In this document: piece after piece, positions 16,551 to 64,000 of the stretch
Layout: every line of letters starts with the position of its first letter
Numbering within the stretch: position 1 is the first letter of the stretch
Made by a program: the position numbers and the translations under genes
The notes under the pieces: model-generated
The model's input: only the letters and a program-made list of their open reading frames with translations
Databases searched by the model: none
What the model was told of the DNA's origin: nothing
Assembly: GCA_903869825.1 (NCBI GenBank)
Contig: CAIQAL010000001.1
Span: 7,185 to 71,184 of the forward strand
From: an uncultured bacterium
GTDB lineage: Bacteria > Patescibacteriota > Minisyncoccia > Phycocordibacterales > UBA9973
Direction: 5' to 3'
DNA: 64,000 bases

Positions 16551-16570
16551 AGTAAGGTATAATTATCATT

Positions 16571-16924: not shown

Positions 16925-16933
16925 ATATATTTT

Positions 16934-17683: not shown

Positions 17684-17811
17684 TTTTTTATTAATTGGTT
17701 ATCTGTTATAATTAGGTTAGCCTAAGAAAGGAGAATATTATTAGTAAGGTCGCATTATTATTATTTCAGCCACGAGCTGATCCGCATTAAGCGGAAGGAA
17801 AGTAAAATATT

Positions 17812-18192: not shown

Positions 18193-18201
18193 AGATAATT
18201 T

Positions 18202-18552
18202 ATGAACTTTCTTTTTACAAACATAGCATATGCAAGTGGTGAATCAGTAGGGGAGTTCATGGATAAGGTTGATACATTTATTATCAATCCTCTGATTTTG
18301 TTACTGTTTGCTTTAGCGGTTGTGTATTTCCTTTATGGAATAGTTGAATTTATTTCAAATGCACAGAATGAAGAAAAAAAAACTGCCGGCAAAAGTCATA
18401 TGATTTGGGGAATTGTTGGAATAGGAATAATGATGGCAGTATTTACTTTGATGCACATTGTTCTAAATACTTTAAACATCAAAGGTGTCGATCCTGAGAA
18501 TGGAAAAGTACAACTTGATGATTACAATCCGCCATCTTCGTATACTCAGTAA
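18202..18552 (+). CDS. VirB2/TrbC-like pilin-family small membrane protein, paralog P5
   Basis: Short N-terminal leader (MNFLFTNIAYA), LLLFALAVVYFLYGIVEFISNAQNEEKKTAGKSHMIWGIVGIGIMMAVFTLM. Confidence 0.45.
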   Translation: MNFLFTNIAYASGESVGEFMDKVDTFIINPLILLLFALAVVYFLYGIVEFISNAQNEEKKTAGKSHMIWGIVGIGIMMAVFTLMHIVLNTLNIKGVDPENGKVQLDDYNPPSSYTQ

Positions 18553-35941: not shown

Positions 35942-36970
35942 ATGTCAACAATAACATTTAAACCAAAACAAGTTACAAAAAAAATCACTTCTCATCTCCA
36001 TGACCGTGCAAACGACGTAATAATGAACCGTTTTGGTTTGAATTCTGACGCTGAAAGAAAGACCTTGGAAGAAATCGGGAAGAAATACAGCATCACTCGC
36101 GAGAGGGTTAGACAAATCGAAGAAGCGGCTCTTACTTTGATAAAAAAATCAGAAGCTTACAAAGAAGAGCAGGCGGTTTTTGACGAATTGAAACAAGTGA
36201 TAAACTCTCTTGGTTCGATTGTTGCCGAACATGAACTTCTCCCTCATATCTCCAAAGATAAAGCAACCCAAAATCACATTCATTTTTATTTGGTACTTGG
36301 TGACGCATTTAAAAAACATCGTGAAGATAATAATTTTCATACCCGCTGGAGTGTGGATGATGAAGTAGCGGCAAAAGTTCATGAATCTTTGAAAAAACTT
36401 TATATCAGTTTGAAAGACGAAGACTTGATTACCGAAACAGAAATGATTAAAAGATTTTGCGACCAAACTAAAGAGGTTGCTGAAGAATATAAGAATGAAG
36501 AAATCATCAAACGATGGCTTTCAATGTCGAAAACTATTTCAAAAAATCCATTGGGAGAATGGGGGAAATCAACCTCTCCAAATATTCGTACTCGTGGCGT
36601 AAAAGATTATGCATTTCTCGTAATGAGACGCCATGGATCCCCAATGCACTTTCGAGAAGTGGCTGACAATATTTCAAAAACTTTTCACCGAAAAACTCAC
36701 TATGCCACTTGTCACAATGAACTTATCAAAGACCCAAGGTTCGTATTGGTAGGTCGTGGTATGTATGCACTAGCTGAATGGGGGTACAAAGCCGGAATTG
36801 CTCGAGAAATCATCCGAGATATTTTGAAACGAGAAGGACCACTTTCAAAAGACGATGTAGTTGAGAGAGTAATGAAAGAAAGATATTTTAAGAAAAACAC
36901 TATTTTAGTAAACTTGGTAAACTCAAAGTACTTCAAAAAAAACAAATCGGGACTTTACGCCTTAGTCTAA
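35942..36970 (+). CDS. DNA-binding protein with sigma-70 region-4-like HTH (N-terminal) and HARE-HTH-like winged helix (C-terminal)
   Basis: EEIGKKYSITRERVRQIEEAAL is sigma region-4.2-like. The C-terminus AFLVMRRHGSPMHFREVADNI...FVLVGRGMYALAEW resembles HARE-HTH. Confidence 0.5.
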   Translation: MSTITFKPKQVTKKITSHLHDRANDVIMNRFGLNSDAERKTLEEIGKKYSITRERVRQIEEAALTLIKKSEAYKEEQAVFDELKQVINSLGSIVAEHELLPHISKDKATQNHIHFYLVLGDAFKKHREDNNFHTRWSVDDEVAAKVHESLKKLYISLKDEDLITETEMIKRFCDQTKEVAEEYKNEEIIKRWLSMSKTISKNPLGEWGKSTSPNIRTRGVKDYAFLVMRRHGSPMHFREVADNISKTFHRKTHYATCHNELIKDPRFVLVGRGMYALAEWGYKAGIAREIIRDILKREGPLSKDDVVERVMKERYFKKNTILVNLVNSKYFKKNKSGLYALV

Positions 36971-37053: not shown

Positions 37054-38364
37054 ATGGAGAGTATTTTAATAACTGCCTTTAATTTCATCATTAGTGTTAT
37101 CCTATGGCTTTCTCCGCTTATCGGGGCGCTACTTTTAGGTTGGGCTGCTTGGAATATCTGGCTTCATTATGTCCAGCAAAGTTTTATTTCTGGAATCGAT
37201 TATTGTCTTCTTGAAATAGTCCCGCCGAGAGATGTGCTAAGGTCCCCACGGGGAATGGAATTATTTTTTACTTCTGCCCTTTATCATAAAAGCAATAAGG
37301 GAGGGGTAGAAGAATATTGGCAAGGAGCGGTATGGTTCTGGTTTTCCCTTGAGATTGCTTCGATTGACGGGCAGGTTCATTTTTATGTTCGTACTCCGAC
37401 TCGGGTGAAGGGGTTAATTGAAACCCAGATGTATGCTCAGTACCCTCAAGCTCAGGTAAAAGAAGTTGAAGACTATACTTTAGCAATTGATGAAATTTCC
37501 GAAAACAGTGAATATAATCTTTGGGGATGTGAATTTAAATTAAATAAACCCGAATCGTTTCCACTTAAAACTTACGTGGATTTTGGTTTAGATAAAGATC
37601 CAAAGGAAGAATTTAAAGTTGATCCCATTTCTTCAATCATTGAGCTTTTCGGTTCAATTAAAAAGGGAGAACAAATGTGGATGCAAATTGTTGTTACTCC
37701 TGCCCGTCAAAAATATCATACGGAAGGAACTTTTTTTAAGCATCACGACTGGGTAATAGAGGCGGAAATATTGATTAAAAAACAATTGGCAGAATACACT
37801 CGGGAGCATCCGAAGGCAGATGGAACTTTCGCCAAAGAAATTCGGGCCCCGGCATACATGGATGCTGTAGTAAAAGGAGCAGGAGGAAAAATTTTAAAGC
37901 TTGGATTTGATACAGGAATCAGAGTATGTTATGTGGCAAAAAGAGACGTTTTTGATATGAGCAGTCGCAGAAATATGCGTTTGATGTTTCGCCAGTTTGC
38001 GAGTCCATTTCTAAATCAGCTTGATCGTTATAATTCAACTCAGGCAGATGCTTTCGGTGGAAACTTTTTCAAATCATTTTTCTTGATTTCACGCAAGACT
38101 GTTACTCGTCTAGCAAACAGAATGCTGGAAGAATACCGAGAACGGGCCTTTTTCTACTTACCTTTACGACACCATCTTTCTGGGTTTATTCCCTGGCCTC
38201 TTTCGCCATATATTTTTCCAAATTACTTTCATCATAAAACTTTTGTGTTAAATACCGAAGAACTTGCGACTCTGTGGCACTTTCCAGGTCAAATGCTCAA
38301 GGTTCCTACTTTGGAACGTATTGAATCAAAAGAAGCTTCTCCTCCGACAAATTTGCCGATGTAA
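37054..38364 (+). CDS. hypothetical membrane protein (N-terminal TM hairpin + large cytoplasmic domain)
   Basis: Two N-terminal TM helices (ITAFNFIISVILWLSPLIGALLLGWAAWNIWL); 436 aa; no family recognised. Confidence 0.3.
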   Translation: MESILITAFNFIISVILWLSPLIGALLLGWAAWNIWLHYVQQSFISGIDYCLLEIVPPRDVLRSPRGMELFFTSALYHKSNKGGVEEYWQGAVWFWFSLEIASIDGQVHFYVRTPTRVKGLIETQMYAQYPQAQVKEVEDYTLAIDEISENSEYNLWGCEFKLNKPESFPLKTYVDFGLDKDPKEEFKVDPISSIIELFGSIKKGEQMWMQIVVTPARQKYHTEGTFFKHHDWVIEAEILIKKQLAEYTREHPKADGTFAKEIRAPAYMDAVVKGAGGKILKLGFDTGIRVCYVAKRDVFDMSSRRNMRLMFRQFASPFLNQLDRYNSTQADAFGGNFFKSFFLISRKTVTRLANRMLEEYRERAFFYLPLRHHLSGFIPWPLSPYIFPNYFHHKTFVLNTEELATLWHFPGQMLKVPTLERIESKEASPPTNLPM

Positions 38365-46220: not shown

Positions 46221-47932
46221 ATGGAAAATAGGATATGCCAAAACTGTCAGAAAGATTTCACAATCGAATCGGAGGATTTTTCATTTTACGAAAAAATTAA
46301 AGTCCCTTTACCAACCTTTTGCCCGGATTGTCGAACTCAAAGACGTTTTACCTGGAGAAATGAAAGAAATTTATATCGCAATAAGTGTGCAGCCACCGGA
46401 GCAAATGTAATCTCAGGTTTTTCCGTCGATTCTGGTATGACAATCTATGAAAGAGAATACTGGTGGAGCGACAAATGGGATCCAATGTCTTTTGGAGTGG
46501 ACTATGATTTTTCAAAACCTTTTTTCCTACAGTTTCAAAGTTTTATGAAAAGCACTCCGATGCCTTCCTCATTCAATGCCCGTACAATAAATAGCGAGTA
46601 TTTCAGCATACCGGAGATTTTAAGAATGCTTATCTGGTACACGCTTCCTGGGGTGGGGAGAATGTTTCTTATGCCGCACGAGTAAGCGAAGTAAAAGATT
46701 CTATGGATTCATTGGTTCTTTCTAACTCGGAACTTTGTTACGAAGTGATTGCCAGTAACAAATGCTACAACGTGACCCATTCCCAAAATCTTGAAGGTTG
46801 CAATAATTCTTCATTTTTATTTGAGTGTCGTGGATGTTCTGATTGTTTTGGTTGCGTTAACTTGCGCAACCAGAGTTACCATATTTTTAACGAACCATAC
46901 AGTCGGGAAAAATATTTAGAAAAAGTAAATGAATTTAACATTGGGAGTTATAAAAATTTTAAAGAAATCGAAAAGAACTTCAAGGATCTTAAGCAGAAAG
47001 CGATTCAAAAATACGCAAACATTGTAAATTCTCCCAACTGTACCGGAGATAATATCGTAAATTCATATAACTCTAAAAATTGTTTTGATCTTTATGGAGA
47101 GGTCAGGGATTGTAAGTTTATCCAAAATTGCGCCAAGTTCTTGAAAGACAGTTATGACGGATATGGAGTCGGCTCTTCGGCTGATCTTACCTATGAAGTT
47201 TTTGATACCGGGGTGCAAGGTTCTAGACTTTGTTTCGGGGCGGTTGTCTATGGTGGTCATGATGTCTATTATTCTTACAATTGTCACGGGAGTCAAAATT
47301 GTTTTGCTTGTGTAGGACTTCGCTCAAAATCTTACTGCATTTTTAATAAACAATACACCAAAGATGAGTATGAATCACTTGTTCCAAAGATAATAAAACA
47401 TATGAATGAAATGTCGTATGTTGATGCAAAGGGGAGAACATACAAATATGGAGAATTTTTCCCAAGTGACTTGAGTCCTTTTGCCTACAATGAAACTATC
47501 GCCCAAGAATATTTTTCATTAACCAAAGAAGAAGTTTTGAAACAAGGTTATAAATGGAGAGAAAAAGATGGAAGAAGCTACCAGATGGATATTAAAAATG
47601 AAAATATTCCAGATGATATTAAGGAAGTAGGTGAATCAATAATCGGGAAGGTTATAGAGTGTGAACACAAGGGTACCTGTAACGAACAATGTACTGAGGC
47701 CTTCAAACTTATCCCAGATAAATTACAATTTTACAAAAGGATGAATTTACCTTTACCTCGCATCTGCCCCAATTGTCGTCACTATGAAAGACTAGGAAAA
47801 AGAAATCCAATGAAGCTTTGGCTCAGAAAATGCATGAAGGAAGGTTGTCAAAACGAATTTGAAACGAGCTATGCTCCCTACCGATCGGAAACCGTTTATT
47901 GTGAAAGATGTTACCAACAAGAAGTCTACTAG
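46221..47932 (+). CDS. Cys-rich double zinc-ribbon paralog family protein, copy C (frame interrupted at a T-run ~46606-46612)
   Basis: ORFs 46221..46685 and 46703..47932 are one gene. In the -1 frame, NSEYF is followed by QHTGDFKNAYLVHASWGGENVSYAARVSEVKDSMDSLVLSNSELCYEV, which aligns to copy D. One extra T in the tatttc run restores the frame. Confidence 0.6.
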
Positions 47933-52163: not shown

Positions 52164-52775
52164 ATGAAAGATGAAGAAAAAGAAAAAAAAGAGGAAAATA
52201 AGGATGAAATGACGCCGAAGGAAGATGCTTCTGAGGTTTTAGAGTTTGAATTTAATGATGACGGAGAAGAAGATCTTAAAAAAACCATAAAAAAGCTTCG
52301 AGCAGAATTAAAGAAAATTAAAGCCGAAAAAGACGAATATTTAACCGGCTGGCAGAAAGAACGAGCGGATTTTGTGAACTACAAGAAACAAGACGAAGAC
52401 AGAAAGTTGAATTTCTCCGAATCAATCCGGGAAAGAATTCTAACCAGGTTTTTGAGTGTGGCGGACAGCTTCAATATGGCCTTTGCAAATAAAGAAGCTT
52501 GGGAAAAAGTTGATGAAAATTGGCGCAAAGGGGTGGAATATATCTATGGTCAGATGAATACTATATTTGAAGAATATGGAGTAAAATCAATCGGGGAAGC
52601 GGGAGAAAGTTTTGATCACAACATCCATCATTCGATAGAAATGATTCCGACTGATAAAAAAGAAGACGATCATAAAATTGCTGAGGTTATTCAAAGAGGA
52701 TACAAACTTGGTGACCGCGTAATTCGAGCTGCCCGAGTGAATGTTTTTGAGTACCATGACAAGCCCACAGAATAA
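52164..52775 (+). CDS. grpE: nucleotide exchange factor GrpE
   Basis: Acidic N-terminus, coiled coil (LRAELKKIKAEKDEYLTGWQKERADFVNYKK), C-terminal IQRGYKLGDRVIRAARVNV. Confidence 0.85.
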   Translation: MKDEEKEKKEENKDEMTPKEDASEVLEFEFNDDGEEDLKKTIKKLRAELKKIKAEKDEYLTGWQKERADFVNYKKQDEDRKLNFSESIRERILTRFLSVADSFNMAFANKEAWEKVDENWRKGVEYIYGQMNTIFEEYGVKSIGEAGESFDHNIHHSIEMIPTDKKEDDHKIAEVIQRGYKLGDRVIRAARVNVFEYHDKPTE

Positions 52776-54480
52776 AACCTGTCAGAATTGCAAGTGTGAC
52801 TTCATAATCGAATCTGAAGATTTTAATTTTTACGAGAAGATAAAGGTTCCACCACCGACTTGGTGTCCGGAATGTCGAATGATAAGACGTATGTCCTTTC
52901 GTGATTACAGGGTACTTTATAAAAGGAAAAGTGATAAAACGGGGAAAATAATTTTTTCTATTTTTCCACAAGAATCTCCTTTTAAAGTTTGGGAACGTGA
53001 TATTTGGTGGTCGGATGAATTGAATGCTCTTGATTACGGGAAAAACGTAGATTTTAATAAAAATTTCTTTATTCAACTAAAAGAACTTTTTTTTGATGTT
53101 CCTTCATCGGGGCAAACTTGTTGGAATATGGTCAATAGTGAGTATTGCACTGGTGCTAATAGTTTAAAAAATTGTTACCTGGTATTTGTATCCACGTTTT
53201 CAGAAGATTCCATGTATTGTGCAGAAATAAATAGAACAAAGAATTCTATTGACGTTACAAGAATCGAGTCGTCGGAATTGTGCTATCAATCTTTTGCTCT
53301 CATAAAGTGTTATCAAGCTTTCTTTTCTTCTCATTGTGAAAACTGCATGGATATCTGGTTTTCCAGAAACTTAGTTGGTTGTAATTATTGTTTTGGTTGT
53401 ACAAATTTAAGAAACAAGCAATACTGCGTTTTTAATAAACAATACACAAAAGAAAATTATATCAAATATGTAGATGATCTTGACCTAAGCTCTTACAAAT
53501 CAATGAAAGCGGTAAAAGAAAAGGCAGAAAAAGTAGTGGAAAAAAGTATCAGAAAATTCATGGAAGGACGATACAATTCTAATGTTTCCGGTGAGTACAT
53601 CAATAACTCAAAAAATACTTTTAATAGCTATTACGTTATTCAAGGAGAAGACAGTAAGTATGTTCAATCTTTTTTCACTCCTGGTTTTAAAGACTGCTAT
53701 GATTGTACGATGTGGGGACAAAATTCCGAATTATGCTATGAATGTTCTTCTGTCGGAGAAAATTGTTATAACAATAAATTTAATTATCGTTGCAGTAGAG
53801 GTTCGCATGATTGTGAGTATTCCTATAGTTGCTATGGAAGTTCAAATATTTTTGGTTGTTCTGGACTTATTAATAAACAATATTGCATTTTAAATAAACA
53901 GTACACAAAGGAAGAATATTCCAGACTAAGAGAAAAAGTAATCAAACACATGAATGATGTCCCATACTTAGACAAAAAGGGGACAATGTATACGTACGGA
54001 GAATTCTTCCCCTTAGAATTGTCTCCTTTTTCTTACAATGAATCAATGGCCCAGGATTATTTTCCCCTAGAAAAAAAACAAGCCGTTAACCTAGGTTTTA
54101 GGTGGAAGGATAAAGAAGAAAGGAATTACAAGATAGATATCAAAAATGAAAATATTCCTGATAGTAATAAAGACATTACGGAAGATATCTTAAACAAGGC
54201 GATTGAATGTGAAAACAAAAACAAAAACGTCGAATATTGTACTGAAGCGTTTAAAATTATTAAATCAGAGTTGCAGTTTTATAAAAAATTTAATTTACCA
54301 TTACCAAGATTATGCCCAAACTGTAGGCATTTTGATCGTTTAAAAATGAGGAATTCTTTGAAACTTTGGAACCGCAAATGTATGAAAGAAGGTTGTCAGA
54401 ATGAATTTGAAACCAGCTACGCTCCCGAATGTCCTGAAATCGTTTACTGTGAACGTTGTTATCAACAAGAAGTATACTAA
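52756..54480 (+). CDS. Cys-rich double zinc-ribbon paralog family protein, copy D
   Basis: Intact, ~575 aa. Start at ATG 52756 (MTSPQNKTCQNCKCDF...) overlaps the grpE stop by 20 nt in another frame; the ORF track's alternative start is 52741. Full architecture described in the findings. Confidence 0.65.
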   Translation: MTSPQNKTCQNCKCDFIIESEDFNFYEKIKVPPPTWCPECRMIRRMSFRDYRVLYKRKSDKTGKIIFSIFPQESPFKVWERDIWWSDELNALDYGKNVDFNKNFFIQLKELFFDVPSSGQTCWNMVNSEYCTGANSLKNCYLVFVSTFSEDSMYCAEINRTKNSIDVTRIESSELCYQSFALIKCYQAFFSSHCENCMDIWFSRNLVGCNYCFGCTNLRNKQYCVFNKQYTKENYIKYVDDLDLSSYKSMKAVKEKAEKVVEKSIRKFMEGRYNSNVSGEYINNSKNTFNSYYVIQGEDSKYVQSFFTPGFKDCYDCTMWGQNSELCYECSSVGENCYNNKFNYRCSRGSHDCEYSYSCYGSSNIFGCSGLINKQYCILNKQYTKEEYSRLREKVIKHMNDVPYLDKKGTMYTYGEFFPLELSPFSYNESMAQDYFPLEKKQAVNLGFRWKDKEERNYKIDIKNENIPDSNKDITEDILNKAIECENKNKNVEYCTEAFKIIKSELQFYKKFNLPLPRLCPNCRHFDRLKMRNSLKLWNRKCMKEGCQNEFETSYAPECPEIVYCERCYQQEVY

Positions 54481-54481
54481 T

Positions 54482-56137
54482 ATGAAACCAGAAACAAGAA
54501 CATGCGAACATTGTGGTAAGGAATTCTCTATTTCAGAAGAAGAATTAAATATGTATAAGAAGATAGATATTGAATTACCGACTATTTGCTTTTTTTGCCG
54601 AGTAAAAATTCACTTGTCTTTTTGGATGTTCGGAAAATTTCGAAAAGGAAAATCTGATCTTTCTGGGGAAAGCTTAATAACAGTTTTGCCTAATAAAAAT
54701 CGTTATCCAATCTATACTCTAACGGAATGGTGGAGCGATAAATGGGATGCAATGGATTTTGGACAAGATTACGATCAACAAAGAACTTTTTTTTCTCAGC
54801 TAAAGGAATTGCAAGAAAAAGTCCCGCATCCACATCAAAACGGTAGTAAAAATACAGGATGTGATTGGTGTGACGATGTTTGGAATTCTAAAAATTGTTA
54901 TTTAGCTCGCTCGATGGTTGATTGTGAAGATTTATATTATTCTTACAGAAACTTAAATGTTAAAAATTCTATAGATGTGACTGTTTGCTATAACTCTGAA
55001 AAGCTATTTGATTCGTTAAATTGCCTTCATTCTTTTAAAATTTTTTATTCAAGAAACTCAAGAGACTGTGTAGAATCGTATTTTTTATTTGATTGTCGTA
55101 ATTGTCAAAATTGTTTCATGTGCTGGAACTTGAGAGGTAAATCATTTTGTATAGAAAATATCCAATATACTAGGGATGATTATTTTGAAAAATTAAAATC
55201 ATTTAACTTAGGGTCATATAAGTCAATTCAAAATTTCAAAATAAGATTTGAGGAAATAGCACGTACCGAAGTTGTGCATAGAGAAAATTTTAACCTTAAA
55301 ATTCATAATTCTGACGGAGATCAATTAATTAACTGTAAGAATTGTCATAACTCGTTTACTATAAGCGATTCAGAAGATAGTTATAATTGCATAAGAGGAA
55401 AGAATGAAAAGTCTAACATTGACGCCAATGGCACATGGGATTCTGAATTAATAGGTAATTGTAGTTCTTGTTTTGGTGGTTATATGCAAAAATATTGTGC
55501 TTGGTCAACTTCTCGATTTTCAGAATACTTGGATTTATGTTTAGAATGCGAAAATTGTTTTGGTTGTGTCGGACTTAAAAAGAAAAAATATTGTATTTTA
55601 AATAAGCAATATGAAAAAGAAGAATATGAAAAACTTATGTTGGAAATTATTACTAATATGAAAAAAAGGGGAGAGTATGGAAAGTTTTTACCTTTTCTAA
55701 TGTCTGCAGGGCCATTTAATTTCTCTACAAGCTTTCTGTATTTTCCAGAAACGAAAAAAGAAGATATTTTAAAGCTTGGAGGTTATTGGGAGGATGTTGA
55801 TGAAAGTCATATCGAAGGAATGCTGACTAGTGAATTACCTGATAGCATAAAAGATGTTCCTGATAATATTATTACCGAAGCCTTAATTTGTCCACAAACT
55901 GGTTGGCGTTTCAATATTGCACAGAACGAACTAAATTTTTACCGGCAAAATAATATTCCGCTGCCTAGACGACATTTTGATGTTAGAATTAAAGACAATA
56001 TAAAATATTCGACAGTGTTGCAATCTTATCATTACAAATGTTTTTATTGTAAAATAGATATCGATGGCTATTATCCGCCGGAGTGGGAATATAAAAAAAT
56101 TGCTTGTGAAGAGTGTTACAAGCAAAATATTAACTAA
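54482..56137 (+). CDS. Cys-rich double zinc-ribbon paralog family protein, copy E
   Basis: Starts 1 nt after copy D's stop (MKPETRTCEHCGKEFSISEEELNMYKKIDIELPTICFFCR...). The ORF-track start 54401 lies inside D and is rejected. ~551 aa. Confidence 0.65.
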   Translation: MKPETRTCEHCGKEFSISEEELNMYKKIDIELPTICFFCRVKIHLSFWMFGKFRKGKSDLSGESLITVLPNKNRYPIYTLTEWWSDKWDAMDFGQDYDQQRTFFSQLKELQEKVPHPHQNGSKNTGCDWCDDVWNSKNCYLARSMVDCEDLYYSYRNLNVKNSIDVTVCYNSEKLFDSLNCLHSFKIFYSRNSRDCVESYFLFDCRNCQNCFMCWNLRGKSFCIENIQYTRDDYFEKLKSFNLGSYKSIQNFKIRFEEIARTEVVHRENFNLKIHNSDGDQLINCKNCHNSFTISDSEDSYNCIRGKNEKSNIDANGTWDSELIGNCSSCFGGYMQKYCAWSTSRFSEYLDLCLECENCFGCVGLKKKKYCILNKQYEKEEYEKLMLEIITNMKKRGEYGKFLPFLMSAGPFNFSTSFLYFPETKKEDILKLGGYWEDVDESHIEGMLTSELPDSIKDVPDNIITEALICPQTGWRFNIAQNELNFYRQNNIPLPRRHFDVRIKDNIKYSTVLQSYHYKCFYCKIDIDGYYPPEWEYKKIACEECYKQNIN

Positions 56138-56138
56138 T

Positions 56139-56672
56139 TTATTTTTTGAGAGCTTTAAGAAATTCCAGATTTGTTTCCGGATCAAGTTTTTCAGTAACAA
56201 TAATCATCAATTCCGAACAAAGGCCCAAATCTTTTTTAATATTCGTGAAAAGATATTCGTATGGATGAGGGGAGATCCAGACGGTATTTTTTATGCAAAC
56301 GAAATTCGCTTTCTTGAGTAAGTAGCGTAATGCTTCACGTTCGCTTTTTCTTTCTTCAGGAATATCTAAAATTATAATTCGCCAAAGTCCGTCCCAGGTA
56401 TTTGACACGAGTGCTTCTTCGCCTTCGAGACGAATGGAGTTTAATTTTCTTTGGCCTTTTTTGGTAATTTTCAGGTATTTTTGGTTGTCGGAACTGTGGA
56501 TTTCCACGCAACCTGATTCGATTAATTGCTTGATAGAGCGGGCGAGGGCATAGTTTTTCTTTTGGTCTTTCCCTTTTATTGCTTCAACAGAAATGGCAGG
56601 TTTTTCAGACAAAACTTTCAAAATAGCCTTTTGAATATTGGGTTTTTTGATGTTTTTTACTACTTTATCCAT
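56139..56672 (-). CDS. PaaX-family-like transcriptional regulator (N-terminal winged helix + PaaX_C-like domain), short form
   Basis: WDGLWRIIILDIPEERKSEREALRYLLKKANFVCIKNTVWISPHPYE matches the PaaX C-terminal signature (WDG.W...D.PE..R..R..L...GF..L.NSVW.SP). N-terminal wHTH IQKAILKVLSEKPAISVEAI. Its stop is 1 nt from copy E's stop on the other strand. Confidence 0.5.
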   Translation of the reverse strand: MDKVVKNIKKPNIQKAILKVLSEKPAISVEAIKGKDQKKNYALARSIKQLIESGCVEIHSSDNQKYLKITKKGQRKLNSIRLEGEEALVSNTWDGLWRIIILDIPEERKSEREALRYLLKKANFVCIKNTVWISPHPYEYLFTNIKKDLGLCSELMIIVTEKLDPETNLEFLKALKK

Positions 56673-56709: not shown

Positions 56710-56739
56710 ACAAGTATTTTGCGACCACGAAATACTTGT
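56710..56739. promoter_or_regulatory. perfect 10-bp inverted repeat ACAAGTATTT-N10-AAATACTTGT (operator candidate) in the regulator/dnaK divergent region
   Basis: Arms at 56710-56719 and 56730-56739. The right arm overlaps the putative dnaK -35 box. Confidence 0.45.
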
Positions 56740-56825: not shown

Positions 56826-58736
56826 ATGTCAAAAATTATTGGGATAGACTTAGGTACAACAAATTCAGCGGTAGCTATAATTGAAGGAGGCGTACCAAAA
56901 ATTATTGAAAACGTCGAAGGAAATCGCACGACTCCTTCGGTGGTAGCAACTGCTAAAAATGGCGATCGTATCGTGGGGTTACTTGCAAAAAGACAAGCAG
57001 TGACAAATCCAGAAAATACCATCGCGGAAATCAAGCGCTATATGGGGCACCGCTTTGATGATCCGGGAGTGCAAAAAGATAAAATTTCTGCTCCATTTAA
57101 AATTGAAGCTGAAGAAAACGGCGGAGTGAAAGTAAAAATGTCCGACAAATTTTATCGGCCGGAAGAAATTTCTGCCATGGTATTGCAGAAAATAAAAGCA
57201 GACGTCGAAGCAAAATTGGGAGAAAAAATTACCGAAGCGGTCATTACCGTGCCGGCATATTTTAATGATGCTCAAAGAAAGGCAACGAAAGATGCTGGTC
57301 TTATTGCTGGGCTTGATGTAAAGAGAATTATCAACGAACCGACGGCCGCAGCGCTTGCTTACGGATTCAATAAAAAGAAAAATGAAAAGATTGTGGTATA
57401 CGATTTCGGAGGTGGAACCTTTGATGTGTCTGTACTTGAGATCGGAGATGATGTAATAGAAGTAAAATCGACCGATGGAGACTCTCACATGGGCGGAGGT
57501 GATATTGATCGAAAAATAATTACTTGGATTGCGGAAGAATACAAAAAGGAATCTGGAGTGGACGTTAGAAAAGATCCACTTGCTCACCAACGTTTAAAGG
57601 AAGCGGCTGAAAAAGCAAAACACGAACTCTCTACCACAATGGAAACAGAAATCAATATTCCTTTTATCACTTCCGATGCATCAGGACCGAAACACTTACT
57701 CATGAAAATGTCTCGAGCCACCTTGGAATCTTTGGCCAAAGAATACATTGACCGCTCGATAGAGATAACCAAGCGTGCTTTAGAAGCTTCGCCGTTTAAA
57801 ATGGCGGAGATAGATGAGATTATTATGGTTGGCGGTCAAACTCGAATGCCAGCTATTGTAGAGGCGGTAAAAAACCTTTTCGGGAAAGCTCCAAATATGT
57901 CTATCAACCCGGATGAAGTCGTAGCTCTTGGAGCTGCAGTGCAGGCAGGAGTGTTGGCAGGAGACGTGCGAGATGTTTTACTGCTCGACGTCATTCCACT
58001 TTCCTTGGGAATTGAAACCTTGGGAGGCGTGGGAACAAAATTGATTGAAAGAAATACTACTATTCCGGCTTCAAAATCACAAGTGTTTTCAACTGCTGCC
58101 GACAATCAAACAAGCGTTGAGATTCATATTGTCCAAGGAGAACGTCCGATGGCCGCTGACAACAAATCACTCGGCCGGTTTATTTTGGATGGTGTTCCAC
58201 CATCTCCTCGAGGAATGCCTCAAATCGAAGTCACTTTTGATATTGATGCAAACGGAATCTTAAATGTGAAAGCGCAAGATAAAGCATCCGGGAAAGTGCA
58301 ATCAATCAAGATTGAAGCAAGTTCTGGATTAAAAGATGAGGATATTAAAAAAATGCAAGCGGATGCTGAAATTCACGCAGAAGAAGATAAAAAGAAAAGG
58401 GAATTAGTGGATGTGAAAAATACCGCTGAGATGATTATTTACACTGCGGAAAAAGCAGTGAAAGAGAATGATGCAAAAATTCCGGAAGATATCAAGAAAA
58501 CAGTAAATGAGAAAATCTCAGCTCTTCGTTCAGTAAAAGACAGTACGGATATGGAGGCTGTCAAAAAAGCGACCGAAGAACTTTCAGCTGAGATGTCTAA
58601 AATCGGCGAAGCTATGGCAAAAGCTGGAGCGACCGATACCAAAGACACAACCCCAGAAGAACAAAATCCAGAAGTGTACGATGCCGAATTCAAGGAAGAT
58701 AAAGACAAGCCTGGAAGCGAAGCTCCTAAACAATAA
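56826..58736 (+). CDS. dnaK: molecular chaperone DnaK (Hsp70)
   Basis: [34 protein letters not shown]; 636 aa. Confidence 0.95.
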
Positions 58737-58749
58737 AATTTGTTTTCAA

Positions 58750-58778
58750 AAAGACCCAACATGGGGCTTTTTGTTTTT
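58750..58778 (+). terminator. terminator candidate after dnaK (imperfect stem + T-rich run)
   Basis: AAGACCCAACATGGGGCTTTTTGTTTTT. Confidence 0.35.
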
Positions 58779-58787
58779 CACCTTTGT

Positions 58788-58796
58788 GATATAATT
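58788..58796 (+). promoter_or_regulatory. extended -10 (TGaTATAAT) 7 nt upstream of the ATPase-1 ATG; candidate leaderless transcript
   Basis: TGTGATATAAT at 58786-58796; ATG at 58803. Confidence 0.35.
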
Positions 58797-58802
58797 TATC
58801 TA

Positions 58803-61037
58803 ATGGAAATGCCGAAAATACCTATGAATAAGGATATGACCTATATTGGTTTGACCACTTATCGTGATAAAAACCAGCTTTTTGGGATTAAACGAAAAGA
58901 CCGTCGTCAGCATGTATATTTACTAGGGAAGTCTGGTACCGGTAAATCCGTCCTGATGTTCAATATGATTATCCAGAACATCAAGAATGGCGATGGAGTT
59001 TGTGTAGTTGACCCGCACGGAGAACTCGTGGAAGGAGTTCTTTCTGCTATTCCACCACACCGAATGAAAGATGTTGTTTACTTTAATCCAGCCGATCCGG
59101 ACTATCACATTGGTTTTAATGTGCTTGAACTTATTGACCCGAAATACAAACACCTTATCGCTTCGGGCCTCATGGGAATTTTTACCAAAATTTGGGCGAA
59201 TGCTTGGAGTGCTCGAATGGAATACATTTTGAACAATGCTATTTTGGCTTTGCTTGATACTCCGGGGACGACGATGCTTGGAATCCCGAGAATGCTGGTG
59301 GACAAAGATTATCGCCAGAAAATAATTTCAAATTTAAAAGACCCGGTCATTAAAGCTTTTTGGATTCATGAATATGAAGAATGGCAAGACAAATTTCGAA
59401 ACGAAGCGATTGCTCCTATTCAAAATAAAGTCGGGCAATTTCTTTCGACCCCGATTATCAGAAATGTCGTTGGCCAAGCGGAAAGCACAATAAATATTTT
59501 TGACATAATGAACGAAGGAAAGATTTTCTTAGTGAACGTTTCAAAAGGACGTATCGGAGAAGATAACTCATCGCTTTTGGGAGGAATGATTATTACCAAA
59601 ATTCAGTTGGCTGCAATGGAACGGGTTCGAATTCCGGAAGAGGAACGAAGAGATTTTTATTTGTATGTTGACGAATTTCAAAATTTTGTTACCGATTCTT
59701 TTGCCGGGATATTGTCGGAAGCTAGAAAATACCGCTTAAACTTAACGGTGGCGCACCAGTACACTGCCCAGCTTGTTTCGGACAAAAGTTCCAGTGTTAG
59801 AGATGCTGTTTTCGGAAACGTTGGAACAATGATTGTTTTTCGAGTAGGTTCGGATGACGCAGACTTTTTGGAAAAGGAATTTGATCCAGAATTTACTCCC
59901 CAAGATATTGTAAACTTACCAAACTACAAAATTTATCTTAAATTAATGATTGATGGAGTCACTTCTAGACCATTCTCAGCTAAAACTTTGCCACCAATGG
60001 CGCACGGAGATCCGAAAGTGGAAGAAGAAGTAATAAAAAGTTCTCGTGAACTTTATTGTAAGACAAGAGAAATAGTAGAACGGGAAATAAATAATTGGAG
60101 TGGAATGTCGCTCGGCAATGAGAATGATACTGGAGGGGTTGAAAAGTTTCCTGCGGTTTGTTCAATTTGCAAAAAAGAAACTTTTGTCCCATTTAAACCT
60201 GAACCAGGCAGACCTGTTTACTGTAAGGATTGTATTGCAAAATTAAAATCAGGTGAATTAAAACCAGTCAAGGGTTCGATTAACCAGATCAAATATGATG
60301 AAGGTAAATTCTATAAACCACTGTCGGATCTAGGAATTGAATTTGAACAAAAAACTCCATCAGTGGCGCAAGCAAAAACAATGGAAGGAGATAGATATCC
60401 TGAGAGAACAGACAGAATAGGGCATGTGGATAATAATCAGACAAATGCTCGACCCGGAATTTTCTCCGCAATTAAAAAAGTATTTAATAAAAATGCTATG
60501 CCTGTCGGATTACAACCAAAGGGTAATTTAAATACGCAGCCGGTTAGAAATAATTTTATGAAAAATAAGCCAAAGGCAGTTCATTCAGCTAATGGCAATA
60601 TTGCCTTGAAGGAAATATTGAATAAAACCTTAAATGAAGCTTTGGCCGAAAAAAAACAAGTTCCAGAAATCAAGCCTGAACAGATTGTTAAAGAAAACCC
60701 AAATATTCCAAAACCAATTTCCTTAAATGAACTTAAAACTCAAACACCTGAAGTAACTTTTGTCCCGAAAGATAAATCAGCCAAACCGGAAGATATGAAT
60801 AGATTGAAGAATTTTATAATAGGAAAAAATTTAGAACATAAAGAAGAAGTTGTTCAGACTTCACCTTCCGTCGAACCTATTCCAGTATCAACTTCAACAT
60901 CAATGCCGATACCGGAACCAATTCCTGAACCAATTCCATCTCCGATTCCTCTTGCATTATCACCTGAACAAACACCGGAACCAAAAACTTCAACTAAGGA
61001 AGTGCCTGAAGATGTTCTCAGAAAAATGCTAGAGTAA
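58803..61037 (+). CDS. TraG/TraD/VirD4-type (type IV coupling-protein-like, AAA_10/TraG-D_C) ATPase with C-terminal CxxC...CxxC zinc ribbon and Pro-rich low-complexity tail (ATPase-1)
   Basis: Walker A LLGKSGTGKS, VVDPHGEL, Walker B FYLYVDEFQNF, and RKYRLNLTVAHQY...NVGTMIVFRVG (TraG-D_C-like). No N-terminal TM. C-terminal ribbon CSICKKETFVPFKPEPGRPVYCKDC. Start at 58803, because the upstream part of ORF 58740 contains the dnaK terminator. Confidence 0.6.
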   Translation: MEMPKIPMNKDMTYIGLTTYRDKNQLFGIKRKDRRQHVYLLGKSGTGKSVLMFNMIIQNIKNGDGVCVVDPHGELVEGVLSAIPPHRMKDVVYFNPADPDYHIGFNVLELIDPKYKHLIASGLMGIFTKIWANAWSARMEYILNNAILALLDTPGTTMLGIPRMLVDKDYRQKIISNLKDPVIKAFWIHEYEEWQDKFRNEAIAPIQNKVGQFLSTPIIRNVVGQAESTINIFDIMNEGKIFLVNVSKGRIGEDNSSLLGGMIITKIQLAAMERVRIPEEERRDFYLYVDEFQNFVTDSFAGILSEARKYRLNLTVAHQYTAQLVSDKSSSVRDAVFGNVGTMIVFRVGSDDADFLEKEFDPEFTPQDIVNLPNYKIYLKLMIDGVTSRPFSAKTLPPMAHGDPKVEEEVIKSSRELYCKTREIVEREINNWSGMSLGNENDTGGVEKFPAVCSICKKETFVPFKPEPGRPVYCKDCIAKLKSGELKPVKGSINQIKYDEGKFYKPLSDLGIEFEQKTPSVAQAKTMEGDRYPERTDRIGHVDNNQTNARPGIFSAIKKVFNKNAMPVGLQPKGNLNTQPVRNNFMKNKPKAVHSANGNIALKEILNKTLNEALAEKKQVPEIKPEQIVKENPNIPKPISLNELKTQTPEVTFVPKDKSAKPEDMNRLKNFIIGKNLEHKEEVVQTSPSVEPIPVSTSTSMPIPEPIPEPIPSPIPLALSPEQTPEPKTSTKEVPEDVLRKMLE
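60895..60960 (+). repeat. low-complexity PIPEPIPEPIPSPIP coding repeat in the ATPase-1 tail
   Basis: ccgataccggaaccaattcctgaaccaattccatctccgattcct. Confidence 0.5.
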
Positions 61038-61056
61038 CACTTCACAAAGCCGTGGT

Positions 61057-62823
61057 GTGTTCAAAAATTTTATGAATTCGGAAACTAAAACCCCCAATTT
61101 TGATAAATTGTTAGATGAAATTTTAGAAAAAATTGTGCCTCACGAAAGAGAATGTGCACAGAAAGATATCTCAAAATATTGTGAAAAAAAATTCAGAATT
61201 TATGATGAAGATATAAAATTTTATAAATTACTTCGGGTGCCACCCCCAAAGTGTTGTCCGACTTGCCGGCGGCAGAGACGGAATGCCTTTACCAACAGAA
61301 TATATTTATATAAAAGAAAAGATGATGCTCCCGGGAATTCAAAGGAAGTAATATCTTTTGTTCCTCCTGTCTCGCCATTTGTTGTTTATAATTTGGATTA
61401 TTATAGAAGTTCCAAATGGGACCCAATTTCTTTTGCTGTTGACTATGATTTCTCAGTGCCATTTTTTGATCAATTTTTTGATTTACGATTGAAAGTGCCC
61501 CAGTATGCTATTGTACGGGACCCTTCAAGTATTAATAGCGAGTATTCTTTAAATGGGCGTAACTTAAAAAATGGTTATTTAGTGAGTGGTGGAACCGACT
61601 CAGAAAATCTCTGGTATAGTATTTTTATAAAAAATTCAAGGGAAGTTATGGACAGTCATAGTATAGACAAGTGCGAACAGTGCTCTGAAATGATTTTGAC
61701 CAAAAATATGAATCTATGCTTCTATTGTTATTTTTCTTTCAACTGTATCAGTTCTTATTTTTTACTTGATTGTCGTAATTGCCAAAATTGTTTTGGCTGT
61801 TCAAATTTGCGCAATAAAAAATATTGCTTTTTTAATAAACAACTTGGGAAAGTTGAGTACGAAGAAAAAATAAAATCTATGAGATTAGATTCTAGGTCTG
61901 GACTTAAAGATGCAAGAAAAAAATTTTGGGAATTCGTAAAGCAAAATCCAGTAAGAGCTTCTCGTTCCAGCCGGTCAGTAAATTCCAGTGGGTTGGCCAT
62001 TATCAATTCAAGGAATTGTCAGAATGTTATATCTTGTGAAAACGGAGAAAATGAAAGGTATGTCAATATGGTCACTAACCACAAAGACTCGATGGATGTG
62101 TACACTTCAGGTGATTCAGAACTTTTGTATGAAGTATCTTGGGTAGGAGCGGGCGCTTCAAATATTAAATTCTCATTTGGTTCAAAAAATGTTACTAATT
62201 GCGAATTTGTTATTAATTGTCATTATTGTGACAATTGTTTTGCTTGTATCGGACTTGAAAATAAAAAATATCATATTTTAAATCGCCCTTATGGTAGAGA
62301 CGAATATTTCAAAGAATTGGATAAAATTAAGTTATCTCTTTTAAAGAGCGGAGAGTATGGTGAGTTCCTACAGTGTCGATTTAGTACTTTTGCGTACAAT
62401 GGCTCTGAAGCAGATTTATATTTTCCACTTGATCAATACGAGACAAAAAAAATTGGGGCATACTATCAACCTGATAGTGGAATAGAAACACAAGGGATAA
62501 AAATTGCAGAAGCAAAAGATATCCCAGACAAAATAATTGATGTGGAAGATAATATTTTAGACGAAGCAATTACTTGCGAAAAAACCGGTCGCCTTTTTAA
62601 AATTATTAAAAGCGAACTTGATTTCTATAGAAGATATAAGCTACCCATTCCTACCTTTCACCCTTTGGAGCGAATGAAAAGCACTTATTGGTATTTGGTT
62701 GGAGATAATATCGTTTATAAAGATTTTTGTGATAAATGTGGAATTCCGATAGAAACAATCTATAATCCAAAAAATAATTGGAGACTTTATTGTGAAAGTT
62801 GTTATCAAAAAGAGGTATATTAA
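61057..62823 (+). CDS. Cys-rich double zinc-ribbon paralog family protein, copy F
   Basis: 588 aa, intact. CEKKFRIYDEDIKFYKLLRVPPPKCCPTCRRQRR ... CRNCQNCFGCSNLRNKKYCFFNKQ ... CEKTGRLFKIIKSELDFYRRYKLPIPTF ... YCESCYQKEVY. Confidence 0.65.
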   Translation: MFKNFMNSETKTPNFDKLLDEILEKIVPHERECAQKDISKYCEKKFRIYDEDIKFYKLLRVPPPKCCPTCRRQRRNAFTNRIYLYKRKDDAPGNSKEVISFVPPVSPFVVYNLDYYRSSKWDPISFAVDYDFSVPFFDQFFDLRLKVPQYAIVRDPSSINSEYSLNGRNLKNGYLVSGGTDSENLWYSIFIKNSREVMDSHSIDKCEQCSEMILTKNMNLCFYCYFSFNCISSYFLLDCRNCQNCFGCSNLRNKKYCFFNKQLGKVEYEEKIKSMRLDSRSGLKDARKKFWEFVKQNPVRASRSSRSVNSSGLAIINSRNCQNVISCENGENERYVNMVTNHKDSMDVYTSGDSELLYEVSWVGAGASNIKFSFGSKNVTNCEFVINCHYCDNCFACIGLENKKYHILNRPYGRDEYFKELDKIKLSLLKSGEYGEFLQCRFSTFAYNGSEADLYFPLDQYETKKIGAYYQPDSGIETQGIKIAEAKDIPDKIIDVEDNILDEAITCEKTGRLFKIIKSELDFYRRYKLPIPTFHPLERMKSTYWYLVGDNIVYKDFCDKCGIPIETIYNPKNNWRLYCESCYQKEVY

Positions 62824-62887
62824 CGGCGGCGGGATTTTTGTGCTTATTTTGAAAAAGACGGAAAAAGTGGTAAAATAGCAGAATATT

Positions 62888-64000
62888 ATGCCAAAACCGA
62901 ATCGAGTTCAAATAATCAAATATGCGCCACCCCCACCGGAATTACCGGTTTTTGGTAAGGTGAAACCGGAAGAAGTTTCTTTTATTGGGCGCACGAACTA
63001 TGTGGCAGCTCTCGAGGAAAAGAAATTTATTTTTGGATTAAAGCGAGTTGATCGAAGGAGGCATTTATATATTATTGGGAAGTCAGGGGTGGGGAAAACA
63101 AAACTACTGGAACTATTTATTCGCCAGGATATCACTTACAATCACGGACTGTGTTTGATTGACCCTCACGGAGATGTTATCGAAGGCGTACTTGATTACA
63201 TTCCGAAAGAAAGAATGGAAGATGTATGTATTATCGATCCGACAGATACTGAATTCCCTGCATCATTTAATCCACTTGCGAACGTTGACCCATTGTTTAA
63301 ATTTCAGTTGACTCAAGGGTTGATTGAAGTCTTCCAGAAACAATTTGGAGCCAATTGGACACCTCGCCTCGAACACGTTTTCCGTTTTACCTGTCTTGCA
63401 TTGCTTGATTATCCACATGCCACGATGCGAGGAATGATTTCAATGTTGACCGACCGAAATTATCGACAGAAGGTAGTGGAATATATTACAGACGATATGG
63501 TAAAAAGATTCTTCGCTATTGAATTCGCGGACTGGTCCGAGAAATTCGATACTGATGCTATTATTCCACTTGTAAACAAGCTCGGTCAATTTCTGTCCGA
63601 TCCGCTCTTACGTAATATTTTTGGACAAAAAGAAAACAAGATTGATATTAGTCAATTAATGAATGATGAAAAAATCATTCTGATTAATTTATCAAAAGGG
63701 CGCTTAGGAGAAGAAAATTCAAGTTTCTTGGGATCAATTTTCTTGACTAAAATCAAGCAAGCAGGGATGGAGCGGGCGGCTATCCCAGAATCAGAACGTA
63801 AAGATTTCTATCTGTACGTGGACGAGTTTCAAAACGTGGTGACTCAGACATTTGAAAACATTTTATCGGAAGCCAGAAAGTATGCCCTGAATCTGACTAT
63901 CGCGCATCAGTATGTCGGTCAGATTATCCCTCGAGTACATCAAGCAGTGCTCGGGAACTGTGGTTCCGTTATTACTTTCCGTATTGGGGGGGAAGACGCG
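62888..64000 (+). CDS. TraG/TraD/VirD4-type ATPase, paralog of ATPase-1 (ATPase-2; 3'-truncated by window edge)
   Basis: Not in the ORF track because there is no stop in the window. MPKPNRVQIIKYAPPPPELPVFGKVKPEEVSFIGRTNYVAALEEKKFIFGLKRVDRRRHLYIIGKSGVGKTKLL...IDPHGDV...FYLYVDEFQNVV...RKYALNLTIAHQY...NCGSVITFRIGGEDA is collinear with ATPase-1. TGGTAAAAT extended -10 at 62868-62876. Confidence 0.6.
   Translation, partial: MPKPNRVQIIKYAPPPPELPVFGKVKPEEVSFIGRTNYVAALEEKKFIFGLKRVDRRRHLYIIGKSGVGKTKLLELFIRQDITYNHGLCLIDPHGDVIEGVLDYIPKERMEDVCIIDPTDTEFPASFNPLANVDPLFKFQLTQGLIEVFQKQFGANWTPRLEHVFRFTCLALLDYPHATMRGMISMLTDRNYRQKVVEYITDDMVKRFFAIEFADWSEKFDTDAIIPLVNKLGQFLSDPLLRNIFGQKENKIDISQLMNDEKIILINLSKGRLGEENSSFLGSIFLTKIKQAGMERAAIPESERKDFYLYVDEFQNVVTQTFENILSEARKYALNLTIAHQYVGQIIPRVHQAVLGNCGSVITFRIGGEDA

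Follow-up and report, generated by a model that had tools for sequence, protein, structure and literature searches.

Type IV coupling proteins (T4CPs) such as TrwB of R388, TraD, VirD4, Cag-beta and DotL are built on a RecA-like nucleotide-binding domain (NBD) with an inserted helical domain and are anchored by an N-terminal transmembrane (TM) domain, and in some of them a long C-terminal extension carries docking motifs: the tail of TraD binds TraM, and DotL binds IcmS/W, LvgA and DotY/Z. These proteins are the closest described relatives of two ATPases, here called ATPase-1 and ATPase-2, that are encoded on either side of a cysteine-rich (Cys-rich) protein, member F of its family, in contig CAIQAL010000001.1 of an uncultured bacterium of the Patescibacteriota (assembly GCA_903869825.1). 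The window analyzed is a stretch of 64,000 nt of this contig, numbered from its first letter as position 1.

Homologues of coupling proteins are frequent in Patescibacteria, a group with tiny genomes that makes up a large share of bacterial diversity. A census reported 5,713 VirD4-type homologues in 2,918 Patescibacteria genomes, or about two such genes per genome, mostly far from virB4 (only 148 lie near it), and its authors raise the possibility of exaptation; the same work reports that the T4CP homologue of S. epibionticum is dispensable and its type IV secretion system (T4SS) essential (PMC12102498). Wang et al. describe a Saccharibacteria T4SS with no recognizable coupling protein or relaxase, and bacteria of the candidate phyla radiation (CPR) as dependent on imported nucleic acid (PMC10633639). 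We found no paper describing the arrangement analyzed here, or any linkage between dnaK and a T4CP.

To that census our analysis adds, for one large class of these genes, a fixed position between dnaK and dnaJ, a conserved partner family bearing the zinc ribbon type of ATPase-1, a probable split-off membrane anchor (DUF8128), and a candidate operator-repressor pair. The ATPase pair is a core chromosomal module, neither mobile nor part of a scattered T4SS island. We tentatively favor, as the most probable explanation although somewhat short of an even chance, that it constitutes a chromosomally fixed, lineage-wide, two-subunit motor derived from a T4CP, with a split-off membrane partner and a functional tie to the Cys-rich proteins. 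The original prediction from the window's sequence is partly supported by these results: the T4CP-like class of the ATPases and the ribbon they have in common with the Cys-rich family hold, and the framing of the locus as a T4SS does not.

Class and architecture of the ATPase pair

Three ORFs (open reading frames) on the same strand follow dnaK on its 3' side:

58803..61037, plus strand: ATPase-1, 744 amino acids (aa) from the ATG, in an ORF that opens at TTG 58740; a T4CP-like P-loop NBD with helical insertion spans aa 1-~445 and is followed by a zinc ribbon at aa 453-477 and by a tail of 260 aa rich in Pro, Lys and Glu
60159..60233, plus strand: zinc ribbon of ATPase-1 (C453..C477), a PF23477/TIGR04272 member
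60459..60491, plus strand: conserved island IFSAIKKVFNK (aa 553-563) in the ATPase-1 tail
61057..62823, plus strand: Cys-rich family member F, 588 aa, 28 Cys
62728-62802: C-terminal ribbon of F (aa 558-582)
62888..64000, plus strand, running off the window end: ATPase-2, N-terminal 371 aa of about 500

The ATG start of ATPase-1 is confirmed by a 100%-identical database protein (P0001) of 744 aa. Spacers of 19 nt (ATPase-1/F) and 64 nt (F/ATPase-2) were measured, as originally given; since orthologs of F are mostly 577-583 aa long, its true start may be Met6, in which case the first spacer would be 34 nt. Because the window ends inside the gene, full-length features of ATPase-2 were taken from 95%-identical orthologs (483-525 aa).

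ATPase-1 and ATPase-2 are paralogs (48% identity over 348 aa, E 6e-120), and the collinear motifs listed in the original prediction lie where it had quoted them. Walker A reads GKSGTGKS (aa 42) in ATPase-1 and GKSGVGKT (aa 64) in ATPase-2, DPHGE in the former corresponds to DPHGD in the latter, FYLYVDEFQN is common to both, and the RKY segment is RKYRLNLTVAHQY in ATPase-1 and RKYALNLTIAHQY in ATPase-2. Neither paralog shows any variation in Walker A, Walker B or the RKY segment, so both are probably active as ATPases.

Matches to hidden Markov models (HMMs), the PDB sequence search and Foldseek together place the pair in the VirD4/VirB4/HerA branch of P-loop ATPases, closest to T4CPs, which agrees with the TraG/VirD4-type class, rather than VirB4 or HerA, proposed for it earlier. 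In Pfam, ATPase-1 exceeds the cut-offs of TrwB_AAD_bind (41.8 bits, cut-off 20.5), T4SS-DNA_transf (33.3, cut-off 20.1) and TraG-D_C (25.3, cut-off 22), and ATPase-2 those of TrwB_AAD_bind and T4SS-DNA_transf; the DUF87 central-domain model also passes (33.3 versus 23.2), a match at superfamily level. TrwB was the sole match in the PDB sequence search. An AlphaFold2 model of ATPase-1 aa 1-500, with a predicted local distance difference test (pLDDT) score of 72, shows a RecA-like core, inserted helices and a small ribbon. About seven helices (aa 113-237, local pLDDT 46-75) lie between strands 91-94 and 241-245, in a region covered by the TrwB_AAD_bind alignment; the helical insertion is kept in both proteins. 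Foldseek ranks TrwB first (E 3e-10), followed by HerA, Cag-beta and DotL, with VirB4/TrwK appearing much later; its neighbors also include DptH and the Sir2-HerA and DUF4297-HerA complexes.

Other members of the superfamily fit less well. The Pfam AAA_10 and CagE/VirB4-type models remain under threshold, NCBIfam VirB4 matches are weak, and the VirB4 layout of an N-terminal domain of ~400 aa followed by a C-terminal ATPase matching VirB4 models was not found in the pair. The combination of FtsK_SpoIIIE motor domain and gamma domain, which defines FtsK/SpoIIIE, was likewise not found in the pair. Unlike HerA and DptH-DndH, the pair has no HAS-barrel N-domain, and no NurA, Sir2, Dnd or other defence-effector partner was seen in the 80 related loci described below, where the genes occupy a housekeeping locus. 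EssC/EccC of type VII secretion offer an analogy only. Their folds match far more remotely, EssC consists of one TM-anchored chain with several domains, and no WXG100-type partners are present here.

The pair nevertheless departs from T4CPs in defining features. Only about 35 residues precede the P-loop of ATPase-1, and neither ATPase-1 nor a full-length ortholog of ATPase-2 (95% identical) shows a TM-like or hydrophobic segment, bearing out the earlier observation that the N-terminal TM pair of T4CPs is missing. The best NCBIfam matches, TraD and CD1115 VirD4-like models, fall far under their equivalog and subfamily cut-offs (about 50 bits versus 250-650; SXT_TraD 50.6 versus 366, CD1115 VirD4-like 40-47 versus 250). 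T4CPs carry their TM domain in the same polypeptide and are linked to a T4SS, a relaxase or a mobile element, whereas here two obligately paired paralogs, one of them with a zinc ribbon, are unlinked to relaxase, VirB4 or mobile element, are flanked by dnaK and dnaJ, and are near-invariant across species. Like TraD and DotL, the pair has a long C-terminal extension with candidate docking motifs, carried by one subunit, ATPase-1.

Position and conservation between dnaK and dnaJ

The genomic context of the pair was surveyed in 80 loci (L005-L084) from GTDB species representatives, and in related contigs. These loci were chosen by similarity to ATPase-1; ATPase-2 and the comparison genes were not selected in this way. 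A near-universal gene order emerges: grpE, zero to four Cys-rich genes, a paaX-like gene on the opposite strand, dnaK, ATPase-1, zero to four Cys-rich genes, ATPase-2 and dnaJ. The window contains the 5' part of this arrangement as follows:

52164..52775, plus strand: grpE, first gene of the conserved chaperone locus
52741..54480, plus strand: Cys-rich family member in the grpE-paaX slot, 579 aa
54401..56137, plus strand: Cys-rich family member in the grpE-paaX slot, 578 aa; true start probably Met28 at 54482
56139..56672, minus strand: PaaX-like winged helix-turn-helix regulator, divergent from dnaK, position conserved
56826..58736, plus strand: dnaK (Hsp70), directly 5' of ATPase-1

DnaK is the upstream neighbor in 60 of 62 loci and DnaJ the downstream neighbor in all 57 of 57. 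The placement of F between the ATPases, pointed out in the original prediction, is not a chance occurrence, because one to four Cys-rich genes lie between them in about three quarters of the 61 loci holding both. The four related loci inspected first had given the impression that F was inserted in this genome alone, which the survey of 80 loci disproved.

Median identity to the window, computed over the same genomes, is 88% for the ATPase-1 domain and 91% for ATPase-2, as against 86% for DnaK, 81% for RpoA and 72-77% for four ribosomal proteins; the ATPase-1 tail (41%) and the Cys-rich proteins (34%) are far more variable. These values indicate that the ATPases are under stronger purifying selection than DnaK. 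It is the fixed position between dnaK and dnaJ, together with conservation above DnaK, RpoA and ribosomal proteins, that identifies the pair as a core module, at odds with the scattered T4SS-like apparatus initially envisaged. No nuclease, relaxase or competence gene was found at the locus in the related contigs or the 80 loci. A gene pair kept more constant than DnaK in such tiny genomes must do something central.

The family is large. The ATPases have more than 8000 close homologs, narrow search patterns matched 385 species-representative genomes, and a profile search of the full database recovered 8,551 clusters (at 50% identity) with E 1e-30 or better. Many Paceibacteria (CPR) species carry the pair, which has the appearance of core cellular machinery rather than of an apparatus for gene transfer.

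This setting bears directly on whether the genes might encode an anti-phage defence pair of the HerA/DptH type, as weak PADLOC matches to mad8, HerA and DndH and the presence of DptH, Sir2-HerA and DUF4297-HerA among the structural neighbors could suggest. The PADLOC matches, however, amount to superfamily-level similarity, no effector partner (Sir2, nuclease, DUF4297) is encoded at the locus, and genes that are single-copy, universal, near-invariant and fixed at a housekeeping locus are the opposite of defence islands; we give this explanation almost no credence. A role as substitute for ClpB, that is, as a DnaK-linked disaggregase, was also considered and dropped, as a complete ClpB is encoded in the window (24761-27460).

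Ribbons, Cys-rich proteins and a candidate membrane partner

The earlier description of the ATPase-1 C-terminus, a CxxC-x17-CxxC ribbon followed by a long K/P-rich tail, is confirmed by profile scores and composition. The ribbon (C453-x2-C456-x17-C474-x2-C477) has the exact spacing, and the segment aa 447-480 scores above the curated cut-offs of Pfam zf_Tbcl_2 (45.5 bits versus 27) and NCBIfam TIGR04272 (47.7 versus 36). It is kept in 81 of 81 ATPase-1 orthologs. Whether ATPase-2 also bears a ribbon had been left to the sequence beyond the window; none of its 62 orthologs has a CxxC...CxxC ribbon of any kind, and their chains instead close with a short charged tail whose terminus, EAEPMI, is conserved. 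In small Methanosarcina proteins the CxxC-x17-CxxC domain has been shown experimentally to bind zinc, the sole binding known for it (PMC12704099); unlike those proteins, here it is appended to a ring ATPase and to beta-solenoid proteins of ~580 aa.

The C-terminal ribbon of F has spacing identical to that of ATPase-1 and scores below threshold on its own (18.9 bits in Pfam, 18.2 in NCBIfam), while the profile-profile comparison of the C-terminal ribbon of the Cys-rich family with that of ATPase-1 gives an hhalign probability of 96.6% (E 7e-10), and some family members carry a precomputed PF23477 match. The ribbon type proposed as common to ATPase-1 and the Cys-rich proteins is thus corroborated for the C-terminal ribbon and does not extend to the N-terminal CxxC-x24-CxxC FY modules, which were rejected as relatives of the ATPase ribbon (hhalign probability 1%).

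The ATPase-1 tail (aa 485-744) consists of 12% Pro, 12% Lys and 10% Glu. Within it, islands are conserved across 14 orthologs of about 75% overall identity: QIKxDExKFxKPLxDLGIEF, GIFSAIKKVF, NxALREILNKTL, KDRSASxEDMNKLK and a terminal EVPEDVLRKILE. The orthologs have the conserved C-terminus EVPEDVLRK(I/M)LE, and all 81 end in (D/E)VLRKILE. KKVF, in the island with consensus GIFSAIKKVF, is invariant in the 14 sequences, and the window's version, IFSAIKKVFNK, would be strongly amphipathic if helical (hydrophobic moment 0.69), so that it may serve as a membrane- or partner-binding motif, a suggestion we offer as a lead only. Taken with the EAEPMI terminus of ATPase-2, the tail islands look like linear docking motifs for partners.

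The Cys-rich family is unannotated, of constant length (~580 aa) and spread across Paceibacteria-type lineages. F opens with an FY-type treble-clef module, continues with two beta-solenoid segments bearing Cys ladders and a second, degenerate FY-type module, and closes with the C-terminal ribbon, so that two kinds of zinc module occur in the family: the N-terminal CxxC-x24-CxxC FY module, with its degenerate repeat near the C-terminus, and the terminal CxxC-x17..19-CxxC ribbon. Full-length copies number 199 in 77 loci; of these, 101 are encoded downstream of ATPase-1, with 80 confirmed to lie between the two ATPase genes, and 81 upstream of paaX, with 53 confirmed to lie between grpE and that gene. 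Several clusters drawn at 50% identity or more have a single member per genome, in a particular slot; examples are a subfamily in 27 loci, almost always in the grpE-paaX slot, and others in 24 and 15 loci, always after ATPase-1. Such a distribution points to ancient, stably kept positional orthologs, and neither to recent duplications nor to fast-turnover cargo.

The window holds three full-length copies (52741-54480, 54401-56137 and 61057-62823), two split copies and one fragment. The copies away from the chaperone locus are those at 30331-32116 and 46221-47932, each in two ORFs and possibly pseudogenes or two-gene versions, and a C-terminal fragment-like copy at 100-588, at the window start. 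The copy at 30.3 kb lies just 3' of ClpB and a P-type ATPase.

Two further contexts bear on the relation between the ATPases and the Cys-rich proteins. In a ribbon-less clade of ~50%-identical ATPases (metagenome loci L085-L164) there is a single ATPase gene, and the ribbon, the Cys-rich family and a nearby dnaK are each absent from all 80 loci. Its neighborhood, with a murC-like ligase, TP_methylase, DUF4015, the ATPase and then NAD-dependent epimerase genes (often more than one copy), is housekeeping-like and not that of a T4SS. Ribbon and family are therefore co-distributed: the ribbon occurs in 81 of 81 orthologs with the Cys-rich family in 65 loci, and both are missing from all 80 loci of the ribbon-less clade. 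A Liptonbacteria contig (L165), reached through its Cys-rich proteins, carries in order a Sigma70_r4/HARE-HTH gene, a TM-bearing DUF8128 protein, a 157-aa ORF, an ATPase-2 (80% identical), seven Cys-rich genes and an ATPase-1 with ribbon, and has no dnaK in the 21.7 kb retrieved, the locus ending inside ATPase-1. With this contig, the association of ATPases and Cys-rich proteins holds outside the chaperone locus, and linkage to dnaK as a universal feature is rejected on the strength of both the ribbon-less clade and this contig. The case for a functional link between the two protein families, as first suggested from the sequence, is strengthened by synteny in two independent contexts and by the co-distribution of ribbon and family.

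The same contig draws attention to a gene pair at some distance from the ATPases in the window:

35942-36970: Sigma70_r4/HARE-HTH gene, preceding the DUF8128 gene
37054..38364, plus strand: free-standing DUF8128-type protein, 436 aa, with an N-terminal TM region

The window protein matches the annotated DUF8128 protein of the Liptonbacteria contig over its full length (E 3e-47), and the HARE-HTH gene lies 5' of DUF8128 in both. In 59 of the 150 closest cluster representatives (E down to 2e-43) DUF8128 is fused N-terminally to the ATPase, and many of these fusions also bear an N-terminal TM helix; the window protein is homologous over its full length to this ATPase-fused domain of other CPR lineages. 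Because it is fused to the same ATPase elsewhere, DUF8128 is a candidate partner here, which suggests a split-off membrane anchor or partner of the soluble pair. In the fused relatives, the order of TM helix, ~350-aa DUF8128 and ATPase resembles the N- and C-terminal domain order of VirB3-VirB4 fusions, but VirB4 models stay under threshold for these ATPases, DUF8128 has no PDB sequence relative, and Foldseek places TrwK/VirB4 far under TrwB. No Pfam match and no PDB relative by sequence or profile was obtained for DUF8128, its sole PDB match (adiponectin) being rejected as a repeat artefact, and we found no paper on this domain.

These observations also weigh on the idea that the arrangement is merely frozen gene order in streamlined genomes, devoid of common function, with the ribbon a widespread and promiscuous zinc module. 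Consistent with it, neither the distant clade nor the Liptonbacteria contig has the ATPases linked to dnaK, the genes may have separate promoters, Cys-rich genes occur elsewhere too, and PF23477/TIGR04272 is present in unrelated small archaeal proteins. Yet adjacency of ATPase and Cys-rich genes is kept after relocation to another locus, slot-specific orthologs are maintained in dozens of species, ribbon and family are jointly present or jointly absent in the two sampled clades, and the DUF8128 fusion indicates that at least one partner is functional and not merely positional. Frozen order as a complete account appears improbable to us.

Returning to the two-subunit motor, we propose that it would have originated in the VirD4/TrwB branch of FtsK-HerA ATPases and been removed from its conjugation context. 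ATPase-1 and ATPase-2 would form a mixed ring that docks at the membrane through the DUF8128 protein, the equivalent of a split T4CP-type N-terminal anchor. The ribbon and short conserved tail motifs of ATPase-1 would bring in partners in the manner of the C-terminal tails of TraD and DotL. For the Cys-rich proteins we propose a role as clients, adaptors or regulators of this motor, docked or recognized through their C-terminal ribbon as a common element. The module would, in this lineage, be co-expressed with DnaK/DnaJ/GrpE under the PaaX-like repressor, the chaperones preparing or releasing Cys-rich clients. A more specific version, in which the heteromeric, DUF8128-anchored ring works with DnaK/DnaJ/GrpE, reads the C-terminal ribbon as an address tag and translocates or assembles Cys-rich beta-solenoid proteins at or across the membrane, strikes us as decidedly unlikely as it stands; were it true, it would mean that Paceibacteria have a core machine not described before and would represent a new protein-targeting or secretion route evolved from a conjugation coupling protein, with the ribbon of ATPase-1 itself acting as a built-in pseudo-substrate or docking element.

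Several points count against the two-subunit motor tied to the Cys-rich proteins. Every mechanistic step would rest on synteny, gene fusion and homology, and the structural model of ATPase-1 is of moderate confidence (pLDDT 72). Linkage to dnaK is lineage-specific, with none in the ~50%-identical clade and none in the Liptonbacteria cluster, and the chaperone coupling may for that reason be incidental. A Cys-rich gene is missing within 10 kb in 17 of the 81 loci, where the ribbon is still kept; Cys-rich genes also occur elsewhere, as the three additional copies in the window illustrate, and a Kuenenbacteria contig has one among pyrimidine genes with no ATPase nearby. The DUF8128 gene is 20 kb away here, and of 80 relatives just 1 has it within 10 kb. 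Finally, a terminator-like hairpin and promoter-like sites in the spacers make co-transcription of dnaK and the ATPases a proposal.

Secretion context, cargo and regulation

The original prediction had also taken a pilin array at 16.1-18.6 kb as a hint of a T4SS. The array itself is real, with five tandem small ORFs (16137-18552) matching Pfam T4SS_pilin (PF18895) and two of them also TrbC/VirB2 (one above cut-off), and nothing ties it to the ATPase genes. VirB2-like pilin arrays of this kind have been reported for Patescibacteria (PMC12102498). A 431-aa ORF (14841-16136) without Pfam match precedes the array, with no VirB4 seen nearby, and the window ORFs that were scanned include no VirB4, VirB6 or relaxase gene.

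An alternative, which sharpens the idea of the original prediction, is to regard the ATPases as the unlinked, seemingly missing coupling proteins of a chromosomal, non-conjugative Patescibacteria T4SS, with the Cys-rich proteins as secreted substrates that are read by their C-terminal ribbon and kept export-competent by DnaK/DnaJ. Of the alternatives considered this is the one we take most seriously, although we judge it unlikely. T4CPs are the best-matching known family, VirB2/TrbC-type pilin genes share the window, and a TM partner exists, either separate or fused. The Saccharibacteria T4SS has no recognizable T4CP (PMC10633639), and t4cp genes are often unlinked from virB4 (PMC12102498). 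T4SS substrates, moreover, are typically signalled at the C-terminus, and the Cys-rich proteins all end in a ribbon; DotL and TraD, for their part, also bind adaptors through long C-terminal tails. Against this, a mere 148 of 5,713 Patescibacteria T4CP homologues are near virB4, and the homologue in S. epibionticum is reported dispensable where the T4SS is essential (PMC12102498). Conservation above DnaK would be unusual for a secretion accessory, and the Cys-rich paralogs are stable, slot-specific and one-per-genome, whereas cargo often turns over quickly; they also have no export signal and many apparently cytoplasmic zinc sites, and the window ORFs scanned yielded no VirB4 or VirB6.

The cargo might instead be nucleic acid. 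A translocase for DNA uptake, chromosome handling or repair, comparable to TrwB, FtsK, HerA, archaeal Ced or Thermus TdtA, would use the ribbon and basic tail to bind DNA or RNA, with the Cys-rich and chaperone neighbors as co-regulated bystanders or nucleic-acid-binding accessories. The structural neighborhood of the pair consists entirely of DNA pumps, the ATPase-1 tail is Lys-rich, a gene for a Sigma70_r4/HARE-HTH DNA-binding protein lies 5' of DUF8128 in the window and the Liptonbacteria contig, and the extreme conservation fits a core DNA transaction; CPR bacteria also depend on imported nucleic acid (PMC10633639). This explanation leaves unaccounted for, however, the recurrent interleaving with Cys-rich genes in two contexts and the co-distribution of ribbon and family; there is no nuclease, relaxase or competence gene at the locus, and the CxxC-x17-CxxC domain is known for zinc binding only (PMC12704099). 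We consider it unlikely as well, second among the alternatives.

The motor might or might not feed the Patescibacteria VirB4-type T4SS, and its cargo may be protein or nucleic acid. With proteins as cargo, it would exemplify how a component of conjugation came to serve housekeeping or interaction with a host; with DNA as cargo, it may supply the cytoplasmic motor still missing for nucleic-acid traffic in these symbionts. Either way, candidate roles can be put forward for three large families of 'hypothetical' proteins.

The divergent promoter region shared by the regulator and chaperone genes contains one further feature:

56710..56739: inverted repeat between paaX and dnaK, candidate operator

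The best-scoring divergent promoter-like sites in the paaX/dnaK gap overlap with this perfect 10-bp inverted repeat, ACAAGTATTT-N10-AAATACTTGT. The window contains no second copy (chance expectation 0.01), and 38 of 60 related loci also carry the repeat upstream of dnaK, GC-rich center included. It is probably the operator of the PaaX-like protein and, as such, a candidate heat-shock operator of a PaaX-like repressor replacing HrcA/CIRCE. Farther downstream, the dnaK/ATPase-1 spacer (58737-58802) contains a terminator-like A-tract/hairpin/U-tract (dG -11.4 kcal/mol) and a TGTGATATAAT extended -10 box 10 nt before the ATG, and the F/ATPase-2 spacer (62824-62887) a promoter-like TTGAAA-16-TAAAAT with TG; each ATPase gene may have its own promoter and a very short leader. 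Rfam and tRNA scans of the 52-64 kb region gave no matches.

In most related loci dnaJ is followed by a conserved 196-aa protein (L001 14739-15329 and equivalents) with six predicted TM segments and no Pfam match, whose gene overlaps the start of polyamine-pathway genes (CN_hydrolase, PAD_porph).

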